A stretch of 64,000 bases of DNA from an uncultured Gammaproteobacteria bacterium (GTDB lineage Bacteria > Patescibacteriota > Microgenomatia > Levybacterales > UBA12049), in assembly GCA_964507055.1 (NCBI GenBank), contig CAZDOJ010000001.1, positions 13,210-77,209 of the forward strand. The letters run 5' to 3'. Within the stretch, counting starts at the first letter, position 1; the number at the start of each line of letters is the position of its first letter. Shown piece after piece: positions 5,601-62,690 of this stretch. The position numbers and the translations under genes were made by a program. Under the pieces are notes generated by a model. The model saw only the letters and a program-made list of their open reading frames with translations. It was not told where the DNA came from and searched no databases.

Positions 5601-6281
5601 ATGTCATACAATATCTCACTTGATTTAGACTTCAAAAGAAATCCACATAAAGGGAGATATTTTGCCTTAGAAGGAATTGATGGAAGTGGCAAAACTTACC
5701 AGACAGATGCACTGACTCAGTATTTTCAGAAGAAAGGTAAAGAAGTAATCGTTGCCCGAGAGCCTCGAAAAGAACACGGCGTCCTGCATGAAGTTATTGC
5801 AAACGTGTTACTCGGAAAAATCAAAATGTCTCCATTGGCTTTGCAATACTTATTTACTGCAGATCGTATCCTCAACCAAGAAGAAACAATCATTCCCGCA
5901 CTTAAGGATGGAAAGATCGTCATTGCGGATAGATCATTTTGGTCAATTATCCCGTACGCTTTATCGGATTTGAAATTGGATTTTACGACAGACGCAACCA
6001 ATTTTATGTTGATGGGTCAGGGGATTTTATCGTCGTATCACCAGACAGTCATTCCGGATAAGATTTTATTTTTGGACATTTCAGTTGATACTGCAATGGA
6101 ACGATTGTCCGGCAAATCCGAAGCAAAGGAAATTTATGAGAAGCGAAGTAAAATCGAAAAACATCACAAAGGATATCATTGGCTTCTCGAACATTATGCT
6201 GATCAATTCTCAATAATCGATGGAGAATGTTCACAAAAAGAAGTAACTGAAAAGATTGTTAAGGAATTACGCAACCAATGA
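5601..6281 (+). CDS. tmk: thymidylate kinase (bacterial type)
   Basis: P-loop FALEGIDGSGKTYQ, followed by VAREP and DRSFWS as in dTMP kinases. Confidence 0.8.
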   Translation: MSYNISLDLDFKRNPHKGRYFALEGIDGSGKTYQTDALTQYFQKKGKEVIVAREPRKEHGVLHEVIANVLLGKIKMSPLALQYLFTADRILNQEETIIPALKDGKIVIADRSFWSIIPYALSDLKLDFTTDATNFMLMGQGILSSYHQTVIPDKILFLDISVDTAMERLSGKSEAKEIYEKRSKIEKHHKGYHWLLEHYADQFSIIDGECSQKEVTEKIVKELRNQ

Positions 6282-22200: not shown

Positions 22201-22437
22201 ATAAAGCGTCGGAGTTTGGCTTCCTACCAAACAAATTTCATTTTTTGAAACGCTGACTGTGGGTTTACAAGAACGAAGCAGTACGGAAAGCTTGACCGTA
22301 AAAATAAAGAAACTGTAATCGTTTTCAAAGAGAAAACAGAGCCAGTTAGTAAGATTTCTTTAGCAATAAGGAAATAAACCAAGGTGGTACCACGAGATTA
22401 CCTCGTCCTTGAGCAGTAACAAGGAGGGGGTTTTTTT
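22201..22437 (+). promoter_or_regulatory. T-box riboswitch leader
   Basis: AAGGTGGTACCACGAG at 22381-22396 matches the T-box consensus GGTGGTACCGCG and overlaps a terminator. Stem-I-like distal hairpin TACGG-AAAGCTTGA-CCGTA. Located upstream of an aaRS gene. Confidence 0.65.
22401..22437 (+). terminator. T-box terminator hairpin + U7
   Basis: CCTCGTCCTTG (22401-22411) pairs with CAAGGAGGGGG (22420-22430) with one G-G mismatch. TTTTTTT at 22431-22437. The 3' arm contains the AGGAGG SD of the next ORF. Confidence 0.65.
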
Positions 22438-22809
22438 GTGTCTGAAAAATATAGAGGAATAACAATTGAAATTAAATTAACTGGTCCAAATGCTGAAGCA
22501 TTCCTAGCAAAGAATGGAAAGTTCGGAAAAACATTTAGGGATGAAAACGGGCACTATCTTGTCGGAAAATTTTCTGGAAGAAAAAGAAGATCCGTTCTTG
22601 GAACCACTGATATAGTATTTGGTTTGGTTAAAGAAACAGAAAATCGTGAAGTTATTCTTATCGGTGGAATCTTGGGAAATAAAGGTAAGGGGAGGCGGGT
22701 TTCTGTCTCCAATGAAGAGGGAATTGGCACACAGCAATTGAGAAAAGGTATTGATTTAATAGTCCAAACCGATGCACCGGTTGCATTATTTGAAAATAAT
22801 ATACGCTAA
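22438..22809 (+). CDS. hypothetical protein (T-box controlled)
   Basis: 123-aa ORF with a GTG start 10 nt after AGGAGG (22422-22427). No recognisable motifs. Confidence 0.5.
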   Translation: MSEKYRGITIEIKLTGPNAEAFLAKNGKFGKTFRDENGHYLVGKFSGRKRRSVLGTTDIVFGLVKETENREVILIGGILGNKGKGRRVSVSNEEGIGTQQLRKGIDLIVQTDAPVALFENNIR

Positions 22810-39899: not shown

Positions 39900-39960
39900 T
39901 GGCCTATAATAGTTTTATTTTTAATCATTTCATGGTATAATCCCAAAAGACAAGCCATCC

Positions 39961-41019
39961 TTGTCCCATTTTTTTATGAATAATATTGAAGGTGCTCCCA
40001 AGAAAAGAGTAGAACATCGTGAGGTGGATCCACGAAAAAAACCTATTGATCTTTTCTTTTTACCTCATCATGAGGATATGTATCACGTGCTTGATCCATG
40101 GGAAGAAAAAATACGTAATACACTCGCAGAAAAACCTACCGGCAAACTTGTTGTTTTTACAGAACTAGCAACTGGACGAAGAGATATGAGCGATCGTGTA
40201 CGTGGGCTTGTATCCAATGGTGTTTCTCCCAGTGACGCATATGCACAAGCAATAATATCACGGTTGCGTGAAGCTGGAGATGACGGTACAGATAGTGAAC
40301 TTGAAAATATTGCGTTACGAAGTCTCTCTGGATTTGTAGGAGAATCATCCATGAGACTTGACGGAATTGTCCGTGATTTTCCTGGAAGGATAGACTGGAT
40401 AATTGAAGGTCGTCGCGATGATCAAGAATTACCTGAAGATGACGAAGATGTAAAGGCTGCGTACACATTTCTGACGACAAGAGTTGATGGAGTTCCTAGT
40501 GACGACCATATTGATATTTATCGAGAATCACTTGCAACAATTTCCCATAGCGATCGTGTGCGGGATCGGTATATCGCGGAGCAAATTGCAGAGACACTTG
40601 AAAATCCTGATACTATTGGTGTTGCTGGGTGGGTGGGCACCAAACACACAGCAATCAGTCATAAATTAAAAGCAGACGGCTATACAATTAATCGAACATT
40701 TCCACAGTTAGAGGATGGAGTATTGGTATTTGCACCGATAACAACTCTTATACGAGAAGCCGAGTATCATCCAAGGAGAGAAATTCCCAAAGAAGATATT
40801 ATCGTGACAACCGCTCTTGCCAACCCAGTTTTTGATTTCGATCCGAATGCATCCGATCAGCAATTTTTTAAGAATGCACATACATGGATGACAGAGAAAA
40901 AAGCAGAACTCACGTTACAAGAAGAGCTTGGCAGTGATCAACCATTATCAGAAATTGATCCGTCCGTTAACTGGGATGGGACAGAGGATCCTGATTCCGG
41001 TCCACGTCAGAGCCTTTAA
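39961..41019 (+). CDS. tail-family protein T11 (family A)
   Basis: The TTG start gives MSHFF, homologous to MSHFE of T12; the ATG at 39976 is an alternative. Blocks LFFLPHH, GKLVVFTELA, FPGRI, AGWVGTKHTAISHKL. C-terminus VNWDGTEDPDSGPRQSL. Confidence 0.8.
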   Translation: MSHFFMNNIEGAPKKRVEHREVDPRKKPIDLFFLPHHEDMYHVLDPWEEKIRNTLAEKPTGKLVVFTELATGRRDMSDRVRGLVSNGVSPSDAYAQAIISRLREAGDDGTDSELENIALRSLSGFVGESSMRLDGIVRDFPGRIDWIIEGRRDDQELPEDDEDVKAAYTFLTTRVDGVPSDDHIDIYRESLATISHSDRVRDRYIAEQIAETLENPDTIGVAGWVGTKHTAISHKLKADGYTINRTFPQLEDGVLVFAPITTLIREAEYHPRREIPKEDIIVTTALANPVFDFDPNASDQQFFKNAHTWMTEKKAELTLQEELGSDQPLSEIDPSVNWDGTEDPDSGPRQSL

Positions 41020-41054
41020 TTGCTTTTTGTGCCCAATTTGTTACAATACCGCCT

Positions 41055-42089: not shown

Positions 42090-42116
42090 TCAAAATGAAT
42101 TTGGTATAATCCCCAC

Positions 42117-43289: not shown

Positions 43290-43319
43290 TTATTATTTAA
43301 AAAGAATATAATCCCGTCA

Positions 43320-44514: not shown

Positions 44515-44550
44515 CCTGTAATAGTTAAATAGTATATTTTTTGTTATAAT
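44515..44550 (+). promoter_or_regulatory. island junction promoter: CCTGTAATAG-N20-TATAAT (T15)
   Basis: Box at 44515-44524 and TGtTATAAT at 44542-44550. ATG follows 6 nt later. Confidence 0.55.
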
Positions 44551-44556
44551 CCTTCG

Positions 44557-48695: not shown

Positions 48696-48731
48696 AAATG
48701 TCAGGTTTGTTGAGCTAAATTTTGCTATAAT
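48693..48731 (+). promoter_or_regulatory. junction repeat TAGAAATGTCAGGTT + TGcTATAAT (T17)
   Basis: A 15-mer at 48693-48707 that includes the T16 stop codon and is identical to 50766-50780. The -10 element is at 48723-48731. Confidence 0.55.
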
Positions 48732-48737
48732 CCCCGA

Positions 48738-50768: not shown

Positions 50769-50804
50769 AAATGTCAGGTTCACTACAATGAAGTTTGTTA
50801 TAAT
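50766..50804 (+). promoter_or_regulatory. junction repeat TAGAAATGTCAGGTT + TGtTATAAT (T18)
   Basis: A 15-mer at 50766-50780 that includes the T17 stop codon. The -10 element is at 50796-50804, with the ATG 6 nt later. Confidence 0.55.
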
Positions 50805-50810
50805 CCCCAA

Positions 50811-53528
50811 ATGAAAGAACGATTTCGAGAAAGACGTATACAAAGGGAGGTTTTACGACATCATCCTGATCCGGGCGAACAGGATAAATTTTCGCAAGGT
50901 GGAGCACATCCTGAAGTTCCTGGTGAACGGAGAGAAAGAGTATCGACACAGAAGATTGATGAACTCCTGGCAGGAGTGTTTAATAATGAATCCAAGATGA
51001 TTGTCCTTGGTGGGATGATCCTCAATCCTCACTGGTATTCAGATCAGCAGCTTCATGATATGACAATGCGGATGCAACGAGGAGAGCGAGGATGGGGCAT
51101 TGGAAATCACATTCCCTTTGGTTACTGTCAGGATTCTTTTGATGATATCGGACTTGTTGCAAAAAATGAAATCGATGGGGCTCGCGATAGTTTAAAATAT
51201 CATGTGACCCAAGATGGTATTAGTGCACTTCCTGCTATTGGTCATCTACTTTCGTTTGTTGAAGAATCAGGCATCTCTTTGCATAGAACTTTCTCAACAA
51301 CGAGTACTCCTTCTTCAGCAGCGAGTATTGATTCTGAGGAAGAACATAATGATGATCGTGACATACGAAAACGTGCACCAAAGACAAGGTATAGAATTTT
51401 TAAACAATTACTTGCTCATGAAGGACCAATACAAAAAGTTGATTTACAAGAAAATCTCAACGTGAATGGGAGTTCTCTCGGGCACCATTTAAGAAACCTC
51501 AGTATTGAAGGTATGCTTGACTATCAAAGCTATTATGATGGTGAACCACTCGCTGTTACATATCGCATCAATGCAGATGCTTTTCAAAAGATAAACTATG
51601 ATGATCTTCCACGAGATGCAAGATCAACGATTACAACGATTACGAGACGAGTTGCTTTTATTGCTGCTCATATGGAAGGGACTGTTACTCCTGCTAAAGT
51701 GCATGAAAAATTGCTTGCTCTGTATCCTCAATATGCAGAGAGAACTGAGGGTCATGTTCGAAGCAGCGTGAATCGTGCCTTAACGCATCTTGCAAAACAT
51801 GAGTATCTACAGCGAGGAGAGATCTCTGCAGATCGTCCTTCATTAATCTCTTTAACTGATGAGCAGCGAGAAAGAATGCAACAACTTGTAACGATCATCG
51901 ATACATTCCAATCAGGTGATCCCGAATTCTTAGCACAAGGTGAGCAAAAAGCCCGCGAAATTTTAAATGATCCTCAAAGAGTAGCACGATTAATGAGACA
52001 CGCACAAGAAAATTCTAGAATAGCATTAGCTTTGGGGCCTGCGGAGTTAAAACAGATGATCATCGAAATCATTAAAGATAGTGACACACCATTATCCGGA
52101 GCGAGAATTGTGCCGTTGATGGACCATCGGATTGGACAGCCGTATGCAACAGCTTTATTAAAGCAATTATATGATGGTGGTGAAATAGCCTTGGTAAGTG
52201 AAGGAAGATCAAAATGGTATGGAAAACTTCAAGAAACAGGAGGTGTTGACGCATTACCCGAAGATAGAGATGGGTTAAGATCATCACTGCAACAAGTTAC
52301 TGCTGAATTTCAGCCATACGAAAATGGCCTGGGGCTTTTATTTGCTGCTTTAGACACGCATGATCCAGCGTCAGCAGATGCCCGAGAGGTTTTAAATCAG
52401 ATTGAATATGTCCGCATGGATCCTGAATATCGAAGACTTAAAGGTAGAATCGACACTATACAAGATAGGCTGGAGAGTTTCGCTGATGAAATTGAAGATG
52501 AAGCAGTTGCGGACGAAACTCAGGTTAGAAAAAGAACACCACGCCAAAGTTCGGTCGTCATTCGCCAACGGATAGATGCTTTTAGGGATTTAGGGATTAC
52601 CAATCAAAGCGAAATTGCACGTTGGATGGGCTTCTCTCCTGATAGTTTGAAATATCATTTCCAGTCGATGGACGATACGCTTAATAGAGCAATATCTCCT
52701 GAGCGAATGGCAAAAATTGATATATCCAGAGCATTGCGTGATCAGGATCAATTAACTCCCGCACAAATTGCAGAACGGATGGGTACCACTGAGAGTACAG
52801 CTCGTGCATATCTCGAACTTGCAGATGATGCTGAAAGGCTTGCAAATCAACGCGAAGTAACTTCTCCTTATCAAGATCGCCTTGTTAGAGTCCGCGAAAT
52901 GGAAGAAGAGTGGGGTGACATGATGCAAGTTACACCGATGGTTCATCAAATGGCTGCGGAGTTAGGCCTATCTGTTGCATCGATCCATAATTATCGAAGA
53001 GAACTTTTTGCGACACGTGCTCGAGCAGCAAGAGTACGGGAAGGCCAAATAGAACAGGTCCGAGCGATGACTGAAGAGTTACAGCAGCTTCCTAACCAAG
53101 AACGTGTATTAGTGATTGCTGAAAGACTAGGATTAAATCGATCAACTGTATATCGCTTTCAAGATAAAGCATTTGGAGTTGCAGAGCAAAGAAAAGTAGG
53201 AATTGCTGAGCGACGTGCACGGGTTGCCCAGCGTTCAGAAGAGCTTCGTGCAATGGGAATCCCTATAAAAGAAGCTGCAAAAGTTATTGCTGAAGAAGAA
53301 GGTGTCTCTCCTGGGACGATAATGTTGGACAGAAGAGCTTTATTACAATCACAGCGAGAAGCCACACAAGCAGAAAATCTATCATCTTCTGTAGAAGAAA
53401 CCATTGTTTATGAGGCAGATCATAGCTTGCCTGATCTTTCGTCAGAGCAATCATTAAATACCTTCAATGAAACAATTGACTGGTCTGGTGAAGATGATCC
53501 GGATATTGGACAACACAGGACACTTTAG
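50811..53528 (+). CDS. tail-family protein T18 (family C, multi-HTH)
   Basis: At least 5 HTH-like segments: IARWMGFSPDSLKYHF, IAERMGTTESTARAYL, MAAELGLSVASIHNYR, IAERLGLNRSTVYRF, IAEEEGVSPGTIMLDR. C-terminus ETIDWSGEDDPDIGQHRTL. Confidence 0.85.
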   Translation: MKERFRERRIQREVLRHHPDPGEQDKFSQGGAHPEVPGERRERVSTQKIDELLAGVFNNESKMIVLGGMILNPHWYSDQQLHDMTMRMQRGERGWGIGNHIPFGYCQDSFDDIGLVAKNEIDGARDSLKYHVTQDGISALPAIGHLLSFVEESGISLHRTFSTTSTPSSAASIDSEEEHNDDRDIRKRAPKTRYRIFKQLLAHEGPIQKVDLQENLNVNGSSLGHHLRNLSIEGMLDYQSYYDGEPLAVTYRINADAFQKINYDDLPRDARSTITTITRRVAFIAAHMEGTVTPAKVHEKLLALYPQYAERTEGHVRSSVNRALTHLAKHEYLQRGEISADRPSLISLTDEQRERMQQLVTIIDTFQSGDPEFLAQGEQKAREILNDPQRVARLMRHAQENSRIALALGPAELKQMIIEIIKDSDTPLSGARIVPLMDHRIGQPYATALLKQLYDGGEIALVSEGRSKWYGKLQETGGVDALPEDRDGLRSSLQQVTAEFQPYENGLGLLFAALDTHDPASADAREVLNQIEYVRMDPEYRRLKGRIDTIQDRLESFADEIEDEAVADETQVRKRTPRQSSVVIRQRIDAFRDLGITNQSEIARWMGFSPDSLKYHFQSMDDTLNRAISPERMAKIDISRALRDQDQLTPAQIAERMGTTESTARAYLELADDAERLANQREVTSPYQDRLVRVREMEEEWGDMMQVTPMVHQMAAELGLSVASIHNYRRELFATRARAARVREGQIEQVRAMTEELQQLPNQERVLVIAERLGLNRSTVYRFQDKAFGVAEQRKVGIAERRARVAQRSEELRAMGIPIKEAAKVIAEEEGVSPGTIMLDRRALLQSQREATQAENLSSSVEETIVYEADHSLPDLSSEQSLNTFNETIDWSGEDDPDIGQHRTL

Positions 53529-53534
53529 TAGCAG

Positions 53535-53570
53535 CCTGTAGTAGAATTTTGAGCCTAAATTTGGTATAAT
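53535..53570 (+). promoter_or_regulatory. island junction promoter: CCTGTAGTAG-N20-TATAAT (T19)
   Basis: Box at 53535-53544 and TGgTATAAT at 53562-53570. ATG follows 6 nt later. Confidence 0.55.
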
Positions 53571-53576
53571 CCGCAA

Positions 53577-56027
53577 ATGGTAGAACAAAGAGGACCAACT
53601 TCAGAAAAAGTTGTGACTGCAAACGGCCGTCAAGAACGTCGTAAGGGCCCGAAAAAGCGTGTAACGATGATCCACCTCATCCATACTGATGCTGCTGCTG
53701 AGGAGCATCTCACCCCATTTGAACAAGGTATTCGTGATGCCGTCCAAAGAAATCCTGAGCTTACTAAAAAAATTGGTGTATTCATGGAAGATACATCTAT
53801 GACAGCTGCTCAAACAGCTTTTATAAATGCTAAGATTTCAGCAGGCTCCCTTCCTTCAGAAGCAATGCTTGACTGGCATGTTAAGGAGTATCAGGAGCGT
53901 GAAAATGGGGCAGAACCATATGCGGAGGATGTTAAGAGACTTGGAGAAGTTCTTTCAACAGGATTTTATGGTAGAGCCAGAGAAATCGCAGATAGAACTT
54001 TTGCTGAATACCCAGGAAAACTTTTTCTTATTTCAGAAGGTCATGCTGAGCACACGCATGTTCATATTGATAAAGGACCACAACCGCAAACGAAACGAAG
54101 GGGGTTTTTCCCGAAACGCAAGGCTGAGGGACCCGCTCCTAAGAGCGAAGAAGAAATGTTGGAGGCAATGAAAGAGAGGATTGTGTCTTTATCATCCAGC
54201 CTTCGAGCTCGTGATACTAAGATAGTCCAAAATATCGACGAGGCACTGGCAAGAGATGACGTTGCTGAAGTGGTTGGATGGGTTGGGGCAGTACATACTC
54301 CCGTAGGGCATGAGTTAAGTAGGAAATATACAGTGAAGCGTATCTTTCCCGATAAGCAAGATGGTGTTTTTTTCTATTCTCCGGGACAACAGCTTACAAG
54401 GAAGGCAACAATGGATCCGGAATATATTCCTACTCATGCAGAAATTACTCAAACCCGTTTGTCTCACCAAGCCGCTCTTTCTGAGCTGAAAGCTGAAGGA
54501 GCAATCCCAGCAACCTATGACCGGCAGGGGCATGATGGTGCTATATCTCAACAAATAATTAGACGTGAATACGATTGGATGAAGAGGCAAAATACCCCTG
54601 AAGCTACTCCCAGGTTGGCAACTGTTGATATAGTGGCTCAAACTCTACGAGATCGGGAACAAGATTATGCGAGGATTAAGGCAGAAGAAGCCCGAGCTGC
54701 ACATCCGGACTATCCGTTTACACTGCGTATACAACCCGATCAACCAGAATGGGCGATTTTGAAAGCTGCAGGGATGTCTGCTGAAAAGATTAATTCAGGT
54801 ACATTTACTCGACAGGAATTACTCGATGCCGGCTTCTTATTCAAAAACACACTGAATTCAGGAGAAAAAGGAATTATAAGTGGAAAGATACCAGATCCAG
54901 AAGATCCAGAAAAAGAAATTGATTTTACAGGACGGAAGTTGTTAACGAGAGCGGAGGTAGAAATGGTATATGCGTATCAGCAACAACATCCTGAAGTTTA
55001 TGGACTACAAGGTCATGATATCGATGAAGTACGAAATGATATGTTGAGTTTCATGCGTGAAGCTGTGCGTACCGATCCCTTTGAATATAATAATGATTTT
55101 CTTCGTAAAGCACTTCCTTATGATCGAGCTCAAATGGGTTGGGAAATGGACTGGGAACAAGATGAGGCAGATCTGATAGAAAAATTCTGGAGAGCTGAAG
55201 AAAAGAAATATGTGCGAAGTGATCAAGATCCAGAAAAAACGAGAGATTCGAAATGGAGAGCCGCTTGGATACGTGTGAGAGAGAATTTTGCTCGAACACA
55301 ACTTGCTGATCTCTATACTTTGAAAGATGAAGGTACTAAAACTGCTTATTTTAACCGTAAAGAGGTGCGTGGTATCACAACAGAAACGAAAAATATGGTA
55401 CGTGGAGGAAGTGTTTTAAACGAGCCTTCGCCTTTTCTTGATAGTGGATTTTTCTTTGGTCGTAATATTGATATAGATCTTTGGATGAAAGAACAGACTG
55501 GTGATACTGAGGGCGTACACAGAAGGCTCAACGTAGTAAATGTCCATCTTATCGGTGCTCATCCAGAATTCCCGGGTTTTAGTGAAATGGGCACTCAAGG
55601 TTGGGATCAGCGATATATGACTCCAGGAGAATATGTACGAGAGCTCTATCCAGAAGATGAGGCAGTTCGTACCGCAGTACAGACTCAAGAAGCCACACTG
55701 GCTGCACAAGTCTTACATATAGATAAAATCATTAAAGAATCACATGTGCGATTACTAGCAGCTGTTAAAAAATGGGATGCGGAACGAGGAATATTAGGTC
55801 TAAAAGAAATTTTCAAGCGACCTGCATCAGAGTATGCTCCTCAGGCTAAAAATATTGTTGAAGGTGAAGACTATGGAGAAGCGTTACGGGTAGATTCCAC
55901 GGAAACAACAGTTGCGTCAGGAATGCCACAATTGAGCTCTGATAACACACCGCTTGCTGAGATTGATTTACAGATTGATTGGGGAGGAGAAGGAGATCCA
56001 GATCTTGGTGCACATAAGTCTCTATAA
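53577..56027 (+). CDS. tail-family protein T19 (family A domain fused to ~500-aa unknown C-terminal region)
   Basis: The N-terminal ~300 aa carry MIHLIHTD, IGVFMED, LPSEAM, YPGKLFLISEGH, VGWVGAVHTPVGHEL and RIFP. C-terminus LQIDWGGEGDPDLGAHKSL. Confidence 0.85.
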   Translation: MVEQRGPTSEKVVTANGRQERRKGPKKRVTMIHLIHTDAAAEEHLTPFEQGIRDAVQRNPELTKKIGVFMEDTSMTAAQTAFINAKISAGSLPSEAMLDWHVKEYQERENGAEPYAEDVKRLGEVLSTGFYGRAREIADRTFAEYPGKLFLISEGHAEHTHVHIDKGPQPQTKRRGFFPKRKAEGPAPKSEEEMLEAMKERIVSLSSSLRARDTKIVQNIDEALARDDVAEVVGWVGAVHTPVGHELSRKYTVKRIFPDKQDGVFFYSPGQQLTRKATMDPEYIPTHAEITQTRLSHQAALSELKAEGAIPATYDRQGHDGAISQQIIRREYDWMKRQNTPEATPRLATVDIVAQTLRDREQDYARIKAEEARAAHPDYPFTLRIQPDQPEWAILKAAGMSAEKINSGTFTRQELLDAGFLFKNTLNSGEKGIISGKIPDPEDPEKEIDFTGRKLLTRAEVEMVYAYQQQHPEVYGLQGHDIDEVRNDMLSFMREAVRTDPFEYNNDFLRKALPYDRAQMGWEMDWEQDEADLIEKFWRAEEKKYVRSDQDPEKTRDSKWRAAWIRVRENFARTQLADLYTLKDEGTKTAYFNRKEVRGITTETKNMVRGGSVLNEPSPFLDSGFFFGRNIDIDLWMKEQTGDTEGVHRRLNVVNVHLIGAHPEFPGFSEMGTQGWDQRYMTPGEYVRELYPEDEAVRTAVQTQEATLAAQVLHIDKIIKESHVRLLAAVKKWDAERGILGLKEIFKRPASEYAPQAKNIVEGEDYGEALRVDSTETTVASGMPQLSSDNTPLAEIDLQIDWGGEGDPDLGAHKSL

Positions 56028-57279: not shown

Positions 57280-58797
57280 TTAAAGTGTTTTCGGTAGATC
57301 TTGATCAGGTTCATCTTCTCCAGCAAAATCAACTGCATCGGTAGGTATTCCATGCTCTGACGCAAAGAATATAGGCATAGCAGCTTTCGTTATCTGAATT
57401 TGTTCTGGTTTTTCTGTAACCTTTGGTTTTGGAGTAATTTCGTCTATCATACCTAATTTTTCTGCTTCATCGCGAAGAGATGGTGCACCTAATGCTTGTG
57501 TGATCGCTGATGAAGACGTATCAATTACTTCTTCAGGCTCTCCAGAAGCTCGAATTTGCTCAACAGGAATACCTCCAATTTCAGTAATTTCATGTGCATA
57601 GCGTAATGTCCCATCAAGATTTTCAATAATTGCAGGTTGTGTCTCTACTTGAGTTTCGGGCTTTAGGCGGATTCTTTTATATTCGTATTGTTTTATCTTT
57701 TTAGGCCTTAGTCGTCCTTTGAGATATCGCTTGATGCGTCCTTCTTCGCCTGCTTCTTGATCTTCAGCTCTGGCTATCTCAGCAACTTCTTTTGTTCCAT
57801 CGTTCAGTGGTCGCCCTGCTATAATTCCTTGTGTCGAAGGTGGTGTAAATCCATTTTCTGTATAGAGCTGCTTCATTCTCGCCGCGTATGTTTTGTCTAC
57901 TTCTTCAGCCTGGCCGTAATCTCCTTGCAAATCAAAACCGAGCATTCTACGAAACTCATCACGTCTCCGTTCAACAATATTTGAAAGATTATCATCTAAT
58001 TCGATGGATGGATTTCCGCCTTTTATCGTTTCGCCTAGTTCAGGGATTTGGGCCATCCATGCATCATGAGCTCTTGCTGCTTCAGGGTGAAAGAGACGAT
58101 TATATCCATTCCATGGAGCAGCTTCGATAGCTGCAACCCATTTTTGGATTATTGCACGACGCTCCATGTATTCAGTGCGAAGTCGGTCACGATCTGCGAT
58201 CTCTTCAGCACTTGAACCAAGCGGATCCCATGGAATAAATGCGACAGTACCTGTAGCTCTGGATTTTCCATTTTTTCTTGGACCAAATAACACACCTCGC
58301 TGATGATCGGGATTTGCAACCGGACATCGACAGGAATAGGTACATACTTTTACTTCACTCTTGGGAATTATTTTATCAGGGGAGATATATACTTTTGCTT
58401 CATCAGTTAGTTCATCAAGGAGCTCTGTTGCAATACTGAGGGAGTCTGTTATCCCGGCTGCCATATCTTGCTCAGTTAATAAGTCCTTGGCTTCAAGTAC
58501 TGCCTGTTTGCCGAGGCGAAGTTCATGCCTTGTCGGTTCTGTTGAAGTTTCAGTGGCCGTTTTTTCTATATCCGTAGGGGAAATACCATGCAGCATTGCA
58601 GCAGTTACAAGTCCATCAGTTGCGAGTCTTCTTGCATCTGGATCATCAATCTGTTGAGCACTAACTAACGCAAAAGAAATAGGAAGCACATATCTATCTG
58701 CAAGTTCTCTCTCAGATTGAGCTGTCCGCTCTCGTGAAGCAGCTGGAATTCCATCCGGATGTGGATGTCTTGGTCGGAATCTATCAGGAGTGTTCAT
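57280..58797 (-). CDS. tail-family protein T21, operonic with the coupling ATPase
   Basis: The ATG lies 1 nt after the stop of 58799-62551. C-terminus DAVDFAGEDEPDQDLPKTL. No relaxase-type motifs noticed. Confidence 0.85.
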   Translation of the reverse strand: MNTPDRFRPRHPHPDGIPAASRERTAQSERELADRYVLPISFALVSAQQIDDPDARRLATDGLVTAAMLHGISPTDIEKTATETSTEPTRHELRLGKQAVLEAKDLLTEQDMAAGITDSLSIATELLDELTDEAKVYISPDKIIPKSEVKVCTYSCRCPVANPDHQRGVLFGPRKNGKSRATGTVAFIPWDPLGSSAEEIADRDRLRTEYMERRAIIQKWVAAIEAAPWNGYNRLFHPEAARAHDAWMAQIPELGETIKGGNPSIELDDNLSNIVERRRDEFRRMLGFDLQGDYGQAEEVDKTYAARMKQLYTENGFTPPSTQGIIAGRPLNDGTKEVAEIARAEDQEAGEEGRIKRYLKGRLRPKKIKQYEYKRIRLKPETQVETQPAIIENLDGTLRYAHEITEIGGIPVEQIRASGEPEEVIDTSSSAITQALGAPSLRDEAEKLGMIDEITPKPKVTEKPEQIQITKAAMPIFFASEHGIPTDAVDFAGEDEPDQDLPKTL

Positions 58798-62654: not shown

Positions 62655-62690
62655 CCTGTAGTAGTATTTTTACCAGTTTTTTGATAAAAT
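62655..62690 (+). promoter_or_regulatory. island junction promoter: CCTGTAGTAG-N20-TAAAAT (T23)
   Basis: Box at 62655-62664 and TGaTAAAAT at 62682-62690. ATG follows 7 nt later. Confidence 0.5.

Follow-up and report, generated by a model that had tools for sequence, protein, structure and literature searches.

Sigma-70-type promoters with predicted leaderless starts in an orphan gene array of a Microgenomates bacterium, and a private 10-mer in the -35 slot of four of them

The 64-kb stretch of DNA analyzed here (the window) belongs to a bacterium of the candidate phyla radiation (CPR; Patescibacteria) and contains an island made up of an array of co-directional orphan genes, of which T1 to T23 are labeled here; T4CP denotes the gene of a VirD4-like type IV coupling protein. 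Upstream of T8, T15, T19 and T23 lies the 10-mer CCYGTARTAG (the box), each time at the same distance from a -10 hexamer. We consider it likely that the junctions of the array are sigma-70 promoters giving rise to leaderless mRNAs and that the box is a genome-private element in the -35 slot, probably derived from the end of an upstream gene. For the searches for box copies and for genes, the sequence was extended along the same contig to 96.7 kb.

The position of the hexamers relative to the start codons was determined for 53 genes. Hexamers of the type TAYAMT were located 6 to 10 nt from the start codon in 19 of them, most often at 6 nt (n = 9), and were absent from 11 to 20 nt. The relaxed form TANNNT was present at 5 to 10 nt in 32 of the 53 starts, compared to about 10% of control ATGs. 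A Shine-Dalgarno (SD)-like 4-mer preceded only 6 of the 53 starts, all of them in genes without a close hexamer. Of 28 ATGs located 6 or 7 nt after a good hexamer, 17 opened open reading frames (ORFs) of at least 100 codons, where the baseline is 14.5%. The hexamers had been proposed to be real -10 elements, and indeed, they behave as such. Among 30 promoters, TTG peaked 23 to 24 nt upstream of the hexamer start (9 and 5 promoters, respectively), which equals a spacer of 17 or 18 nt; -35 hexamers at the 17-nt spacing include TTGACG, TTGCAA, TTGCGA, TTGAAG, TTGTAA, TTGACT and TTGACA. Moreover, TGn and TTG traded off against each other, with TGn found in 4 of 15 TTG promoters but in 13 of 15 non-TTG promoters (Fisher p = 0.0025). 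The junctions are sigma-70-type promoters with a TAnnnT -10 element that is either TGn extended or partnered by a TTGnnn -35 element at a 17/18-nt spacer.

The preliminary description of this DNA had tabulated the distance from hexamer to ATG, and the same values were obtained for T1 to T8, T12 to T19 and T23: 6 nt in T4, T5, T13, T15, T17, T18 and T19; 7 nt in T6, T12, T14 and T23; 8 nt in T3 and T7; 9 nt in T1, T2 and T8; and 10 nt in T16. It had also given the hexamer of the box promoters as TAyAAT, which is correct for T8, T15 and T19 but not for T23 (TAAAAT), and had assigned nearly every gene a promoter of its own. The latter is true of most island genes but not of T9, T10 and the genes at 64293, 68165, 71522, 73860, 74533 and 76517, which abut or overlap the previous gene; in T11, T20 and the T4CP gene, the best hexamer is located 21 to 34 nt upstream. 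Its statement that intergenic terminators are missing was confirmed: the counts in a consensus scan were not above those in shuffled sequences, and the only hit in a plus-strand junction was located in the leader of T11.

The seventh base downstream of the -10 hexamer is the usual start of transcription. At a spacing of 6 nt, the A of the ATG is the seventh base past the hexamer, and since the hexamers are located 6 to 10 nt from the start codon, transcription would begin at or within about 3 nt of this A and the mRNA would be leaderless or nearly so. RNA polymerase is thus predicted, from promoter geometry, to produce mRNAs that start at or near the AUG and lack an SD site, for which the 6 to 10 nt between hexamer and ATG leave no room. 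Efficient translation of a cistron without an SD site would require either a 5'-terminal AUG or stop-start coupling, and most genes of the tandem array would therefore need a promoter of their own. The paralogues share N termini that begin at the predicted ATG (MVEQ, MVEH, MKER, MTER or MSER), and an independent gene caller put the starts at identical ATGs. Genes with neither hexamer nor SD site directly adjoin or overlap the gene before them, in keeping with stop-start coupling, and ATGA or TAATG overlaps of stop and start connect many internal genes (e.g., at 6278, 9312, 9671 and 18916). Canonical GGAGG-type SD sites precede the gene at 22438 (22420-22440), rpsU and ybaB (contig positions 82330-82351 and 84550-84569), so that SD-led and leaderless initiation would both be in use in this organism.

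The discriminator, that is, the sequence from the -10 hexamer to the ATG, is C rich in the promoters of T13 to T19, for example, CCCCAC (42111-42116), CCCGTCA (43313-43319), CCTTCG (44551-44556), CCCCGA (48732-48737), CCCCAA (50805-50810) and CCGCAA (53571-53576), all on the plus strand. A CC following the hexamer, as described before, was seen in about eight island promoters but in none of the housekeeping promoters, and the discriminators of housekeeping leaderless promoters are not C rich. Shared descent or a shared kinetic control of open complexes could account for the C-rich discriminators. T11 is an exception in that TGGTATAAT lies 34 nt before the ATG (39936-39978, plus strand). Within its leader, a terminator-like hairpin is seen, GACAAG-ccatc-CTTGTC (39949-39965); the CCATTTTTTT that comes next adjoins the ATG. 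The hairpin may be an attenuator.

The same promoter layout is found at the flanking genes thyA and glyA, at the genes for an M50 protease and a class II tRNA synthetase, and at others. About 9 of the 12 closest glyA orthologues have TTGCAA-17/18-TGTATAnT, then 6 to 7 nt, and then ATG or GTG. In pooled CPR loci, long ORFs were 2- to 3-fold enriched after a hexamer plus 6 to 9 nt, an effect weaker than in the glyA set. The leaderless-type layout is a general habit of this CPR/Microgenomates genome and its relatives and not a property of the island. The organism is placed in the Microgenomates group of the CPR/Patescibacteria by its glyA sequence, a single marker, whose best named matches are Levyibacteria (74 to 79% identity), with one further 1.6-Mb metagenome-assembled genome (MAG) at 90%. 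Many of the CPR-like MAG records with the closest glyA genes (e.g., OZ246394.1) are titled "uncultured Gammaproteobacteria," "Sulfotelmatobacter" or "Acidiferrales," which are probably automated mislabels.

Both parts of this layout have known counterparts. In extended -10 promoters (Escherichia coli galP1 type; the -16 region of Gram-positive bacteria), a TGn one base upstream of the hexamer replaces a consensus -35 element, and the distribution of TGn over TTG and non-TTG promoters given above is of this kind. Unlike in extended -10 promoters, the vacated -35 slot of the box promoters is not random but holds a TAG preceded by a conserved heptamer. A Pribnow-type hexamer 6 to 8 nt before the start without an SD site defines "group C" of GeneMarkS-2, which has been described mainly for Actinobacteria and Deinococcus (PMC6028130). 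As in group C genomes such as those of Mycobacterium tuberculosis and Deinococcus deserti (PMC6028130), the hexamer here is close to the start, no SD site is present, and leaderless genes occur alongside SD-led and stop-start-coupled internal genes. In contrast to these examples, the genes belong to a CPR/Microgenomates bacterium of low GC content (about 41%), the hexamers are close to the TATAAT consensus and strongly TGn extended, and the layout recurs at successive genes of a tandem array rather than once per operon. The anti-SD sequence has been lost in part of the Parcubacteria (PMC9297842); an explicit report of leaderless genes in CPR, Patescibacteria or Microgenomates was not found in the literature searched. 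With this junction, a known type of leaderless sigma-70 promoter gains a new representative from a CPR lineage.

The box is present in four exact copies in the window, all on the plus strand (Table 1), where 0.16 copies are expected, and none of 100 shuffles reached four. All four copies end exactly 20 nt ahead of a -10 hexamer, and each of these hexamers is preceded by TGn. Since the motif had been picked by eye, we corrected for this with a look-elsewhere test in which promoters were anchored on their -10 elements (n = 24) and any 10-mer with at most one mismatch at a common offset was counted. Four of the 24 promoters share one 10-mer at one offset, and 0 of 3,000 shuffles reached this number, so that the original observation at T8, T15, T19 and T23 stands; the TGT core ascribed to the box reads CGT at T8. 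No further copy was detected on either strand in the 96.7 kb of the contig. In this part of the contig, the box is confined to the island. A metagenome scan for the box followed by N15 and TTTGNTANAAT gave 17 matches, which is about the chance level, and only 1 of the 17 had an ATG 6 nt downstream that opened a long ORF, which encodes an unrelated membrane protein. Among 80 related CPR loci, a single stray copy of the same box was found. The copies are spaced regularly at about 8 to 9 kb, but this spacing is not continued on either side and was treated as coincidence. The conserved block is really 12 nt long, A[GT]CCYGTARTAG, and 8 of the 10 columns of the box are invariant across the four copies. 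Apart from TTTGn, the 20-nt spacers and the upstream flanks show little conservation, yet no indels are found in any of the four.

The fixed distance of 20 nt is explained by the promoter itself: it is the sum of the canonical 17-nt spacer and the final 3 nt of the -35 hexamer, and the box TAG fills the positions of TTG. In nine of the 30 promoters, the triplet ending 20 nt ahead of the hexamer is the TTG of a -35 element, and in six it is TAG, namely, in T4, T6 and the four box promoters. These six are all TGn extended; at offsets 19 to 25, TAG is absent except for a peak at 23. The last three bases of the box occupy the TTG positions of the -35 hexamer, and the box spans about -42 to -33 as a 10-mer or -44 to -33 as a 12-mer. 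The box had been regarded as too far upstream for a -35 element, a conclusion that does not hold because the distance was measured from the TGT core; TTG peaks at 23 to 24 nt and the box TAG is located at exactly 23. By inspection, we rejected the box both as a second promoter's -10 element and as an independent TTGACA-like hexamer with a 17-nt spacer.

Table 1. Positions of the box copies, related gene ends and junction motifs, and selected genes of the island
Feature	Position	Strand	Context
Box CCCGTAGTAG	36303-36312	+	T7-T8 junction; 20 nt; TGT-TACAAT 36330-36338 (hexamer 36333-36338); 9 nt; ATG 36348
Box CCTGTAATAG	44515-44524	+	T14-T15 junction; 20 nt; TGT-TATAAT 44542-44550 (hexamer 44545-44550); 6 nt; ATG 44557
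Box CCTGTAGTAG	53535-53544	+	T18-T19 junction; 20 nt; TGG, then TATAAT 53565-53570; 6 nt; ATG 53577
Box CCTGTAGTAG	62655-62664	+	Upstream of T23; 20 nt; TGA-TAAAAT 62682-62690 (hexamer 62685-62690); 7 nt; ATG 62698
12-mer ATCCCGTAGTAG			T8 junction; reads I-P-stop-stop
12-mer AGCCTGTAATAG			T15 junction; reads S-L-stop-stop
Extended 12-mer AGCCTGTAGTAG	53533-53544	+	T19 junction; reads S-L-stop-stop; terminal TAG 53542-53544 is the first three positions of the 17-nt-spaced -35 hexamer TAGAAT
12-mer ATCCTGTAGTAG			T23 junction; reads I-L-stop-stop
Degenerate fifth copy GGCCTATAATAG	39901-39912	+	T11 junction; reads G-L-stop-stop; 1 nt past T10 stop; 23 nt (not 20) before TATAAT 39936-39941
TGn-extended -10 TGGTATAAT	53562-53570	+	T19 promoter
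T19 gene	53577-56027	+	ATG 6 nt past hexamer; predicted transcription start at the A of the ATG; N terminus MVEQ common to paralogues
True T11 end and start of T12 -35, AGC CTT TAA TTG	41011-41022	+	10/12 identical to the T15 box 12-mer
True T18 end, ACA CTT TAG TAG C	53520-53532	+	With the next 13 nt (AGC CTG TAG TAG), a diverged 13-nt tandem repeat, 9/13 identical
TTGTAA	43284-43289	+	Leu-stop of T13 and -35 hexamer of T14 promoter (17 nt to TATAAT 43307-43312)
Second junction motif AATGTCAGGT	48697-48706	+	Directly after T16 TAG stop; 19 nt before TATAAT 48726-48731 (T17 promoter)
Second junction motif AATGTCAGGT	50770-50779	+	Directly after T17 TAG stop; 19 nt before TATAAT 50799-50804 (T18 promoter)
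Decayed T gene	28979-29095	+	T2-T3 gap; AATGTCAGGT 28979-28988; 20 nt; TATAAT 29009-29014; 6 nt; ATG 29021
T15, sigma-70-family protein, 614 aa	44557-46401	+	Residues 37-294 align to RpoD regions 2-4 (E = 3e-12)
Array of co-directional orphan genes (T1 onward)	24992-64000, on to about 79834	+	About 34 genes, about 55 kb
VirD4/TraG-like type IV coupling protein, 1,250 aa	58799-62551	-	Interrupts the array
505-aa orphan gene	57280-58797	-	1 nt after the coupling protein gene; the pair interrupts the array

The box has the appearance of a gene end. The 33 array protein ends examined have the form [ST]-L-COOH, except for T20 (KMR) and one KVL protein, and real gene ends score 5 to 10 of 12 against the box consensus, compared to a background mode of 3 to 4; the T18 gene end reaches 9 of 12. 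The block formed by the true T11 end and the start of the T12 -35 element can be read as the intact state from which the box is derivable, and the Leu-stop of T13 itself serves as the -35 hexamer of the next promoter (Table 1). The box would have originated as the Ser-Leu-stop(-stop) end of an upstream T gene that abutted the -35 slot and would have been orphaned later, as the real stop shifted upstream by 1 to 7 nt. The working stop is now 1 to 6 nt upstream of the box 10-mer in three of the four junctions, and the box is in frame 0, +2 or +1 relative to it. We also considered the box as a frame-specific back-up stop and dismissed the idea on account of this variable frame. From these comparisons, the box is most likely an orphaned gene end abutting the -35 slot. 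The preliminary description had overlooked this Ser-Leu-stop character, as it had overlooked that a -10 element 6 to 10 nt from the ATG points to a leaderless start and that the layout is genome- and clade-wide.

A second exact 10-mer, AATGTCAGGT, occurs in three junctions, each time right behind a TAG stop, in the same slot as the box, 19 to 20 nt before TGnTATAAT, which is followed by 6 nt and the ATG. One of the three belongs to a decayed T gene in the 157-nt gap between T2 and T3, whose ATG opens an ORF of only 12 codons (MPNIVGRDWRGI, then stop). An out-of-frame tail remnant of this gene, GPSGNHRTL-stop (29066-29095), ends 3 nt before the -35 element of T3.

As to its function, we tentatively favor the view that the box is maintained in the T8, T15, T19 and T23 promoters as a protein contact in the -35 region, either as an operator or activator site overlapping the -35 element or as a weak TAG-type -35 element with an upstream extension. 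The downstream paralogues are only about 25 to 30% identical in protein, and at this distance neutral DNA should be saturated; the conservation of the box then suggests a function. The T23 box lies in the divergent region shared with the T4CP gene, where no co-directional gene precedes it; the element is in this way linked to the promoter that follows. That another exact 10-mer, AATGTCAGGT, holds the same slot in three other junctions also speaks for a function. Regulator sites that overlap the -35 element are well known from class II activators (CRP/FNR at -41.5) and from repressor operators. Like these, the box is located at about -44 to -33, is strictly phased to the -10 element and is present in only a subset of similar promoters; unlike these, it is only 10 to 12 bp long, asymmetric, without a dyad partner, private to one island and without an assigned cognate regulator. 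The earlier suggestion of a regulator site is in line with this: the box is nonrandom and promoter linked and could be bound by a protein. The box lacks the features expected of a site for a dimeric helix-turn-helix (HTH) regulator. None of the 13 matches with at most one mismatch on either strand was an inverted box copy near a box, a direct partial repeat (13 nt upstream) is confined to the T19 junction, and neither dyad symmetry nor a second half-site was found.

Several points weigh against a maintained protein contact and against the promoter reading on which it builds. The box promoters are paralogous, duplication-related junctions, so the shuffles overstate their independence. The T19 and T23 spacers are identical at 11 of 20 positions by eye, and part of the conservation of the box may therefore be due to recent descent or gene conversion. 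If the box family is counted as one event, TAG at the -35 position is only marginal (3/27, p ~0.05). The box is asymmetric and nonpalindromic, with neither an inverted partner nor an assigned binding protein. Orthologous islands that would allow a test of conservation were not found: a scan of genome contigs with T13 gave no relatives, a profile of six paralogues searched against 5.8 billion proteins found only itself, as did a word search with T4CP, and all Logan assemblies of the organism are 100% identical and thus offer no strain variation for such a test. The leaderless start rests on promoter geometry, and spacings of 8 to 10 nt could allow leaders of 1 to 3 nt. Finally, the starts of T1, T7 and T16 were picked with the hexamer in view, and those of T7 and T16 agree with the independent gene call.

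If the box is an orphaned gene end, it might also be nothing but a neutral fossil, that is, a Ser-Leu-stop-stop end copied together with its junction by unequal crossing-over or gene conversion between the conserved ends that encode the tail, with the fixed distance reflecting shared descent. We regard this as possible, though somewhat less likely than a maintained contact. It would account for the fact that every copy reads x-L/P-stop-stop, for the similarity to the T11 end (10/12) and the T18 end (9/12), and for the diverged 13-nt tandem repeat formed by the T18 end and the box. At the T11 junction, the degenerate copy no longer keeps the 20-nt spacing, the T17 and T18 junctions, which are clearly duplicates, share AATGTCAGGT with the decayed gene remnant, and the box is private to this island, all of which would be expected of a fossil. 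However, with paralogues only about 25 to 30% identical, neutral DNA should be saturated, yet the 10-mer has kept most of its columns invariant; there is little conservation in the neighboring 20 nt and in the upstream flank, but also no indel in four lineages, and the T23 copy has neither an upstream co-directional gene nor a recognizable tail remnant.

The preliminary description had named T15 as a candidate sigma factor reading the box. The box would then be the upstream recognition element of an alternative sigma factor that drives T8, T15, T19 and T23 as a regulon, which we consider improbable. T15 is a bona fide sigma-70-family protein, with 85.5 bits against TIGR02937 (cut-off, 42.9), its own promoter carries the box, and the box reaches into the -35 slot, the contact site of sigma region 4. 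But the box promoters have the same TGnTA[TCA]AAT -10 element as housekeeping genes rather than a distinct one, and in the alignment to RpoD, the residues of the -35 recognition helix that correspond to E585, R586, R588 and Q589 are kept (only R584 is replaced, by P), which would predict a TTG-like specificity and not a different one. Together, the kept residues and the housekeeping-type -10 element lend no support to a new specificity toward CCYGTARTAG, although one would be conceivable. Moreover, the W433/W434 pair of region 2.3, which is needed for melting of the -10 region, is absent in the alignment. T15 also has additional HTH domains of the region-4 type and ends in the C-terminal tail of the other array proteins; if this tail is an export signal, T15 would act outside the cell. 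Judged from its sequence, T15 could be a decoy or a host-directed sigma factor rather than a working initiation factor.

Two further explanations are very unlikely. The box might be an RNA-level signal on the upstream transcript (3' end, termination or processing) that substitutes for the missing terminators, as its location 1 to 6 nt past the stop codon in three of four junctions and the absence of intrinsic terminators would permit, but the T23 copy has no upstream co-directional gene, the constant is the distance to the downstream -10 element while the distance to the stop varies in length and frame, and no stable or shared RNA structure was predicted at the junctions (fold z-scores, -0.4 to +0.5), nor was there any Rfam or tRNA match in the window. 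Equally hard to sustain is that the TATAAT-like hexamer is an A/U-rich non-SD ribosome-binding signal on a long polycistronic mRNA: it is located where a ribosome-binding site would be and there are no terminators between the genes, but it is coupled to TTG at 17/18 nt and trades off with TGn, which are properties of RNA polymerase and not of the ribosome, it is missing from genes that overlap or abut the previous gene, and elsewhere in the genome GGAGG-type SD sites are present (rpsU, ybaB and the gene at 22438).

The genes served by these promoters form the array listed in Table 1. Nearly all array proteins have the C-terminal tail IDWxGxxDPDxGPxR[ST]L-COOH, and most begin with M-[TKVS]-E-[RQK]. 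A hidden Markov model of the tail searched against 1.84 billion representative proteins found only the proteins of this island and one eukaryotic false positive. The VirD4/TraG-like coupling protein has a 680-aa N-terminal extension matching no family, and neither virB4 nor channel genes were found in 96.7 kb of the contig. Substrates of type IV secretion systems (T4SS) carry C-terminal signals, as in the Arg-rich VirB/D4 tails, the Dot/Icm C-terminal signals and the XVIPCD of Xanthomonas. The array resembles these cases in that a short C-terminal tail is common to about 34 proteins, otherwise unrelated, whose genes flank that of a VirD4-like coupling protein, but the tail resembles none of the VirB/D4, Dot/Icm or XVIPCD signals, and secretion is here only predicted from genes. 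A survey of Patescibacteria describes T4SS components and VirD4 homologues as widespread, with no substrates known (PMC12102498). From their tails and gene neighborhood, the array proteins may be a set of T4SS substrates with a new C-terminal signal. A more speculative reading, to which we assign a low probability, is that the array is the effector arsenal of a CPR episymbiont, that the tail is a new T4SS signal and that the two 10-mers of the -35 slot, CCYGTARTAG and AATGTCAGGT, mark subregulons that time sets of effectors. The features behind it are the predicted leaderless mRNA of each gene, the shared tail, the VirD4-like neighbor, the sigma-70-like T15 and the multi-HTH proteins T17 and T18. 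A further feature is an array family whose model gave modest, nonspecific fold matches, including the ChaN/HopBA1/RRSP toxin-effector group.

Taken alone, the box is a small private element, useful as a handle for finding coregulated promoters in the array, and the array may be the more important object of the two. Translation initiation in CPR bacteria is poorly described, and the leaderless signature adds a concrete, testable feature to it. Once it is recognized that genes of this Microgenomates genome and its relatives start next to the -10 element, start codons can be fixed and the missing ribosome-binding-site signals in CPR gene calls explained.

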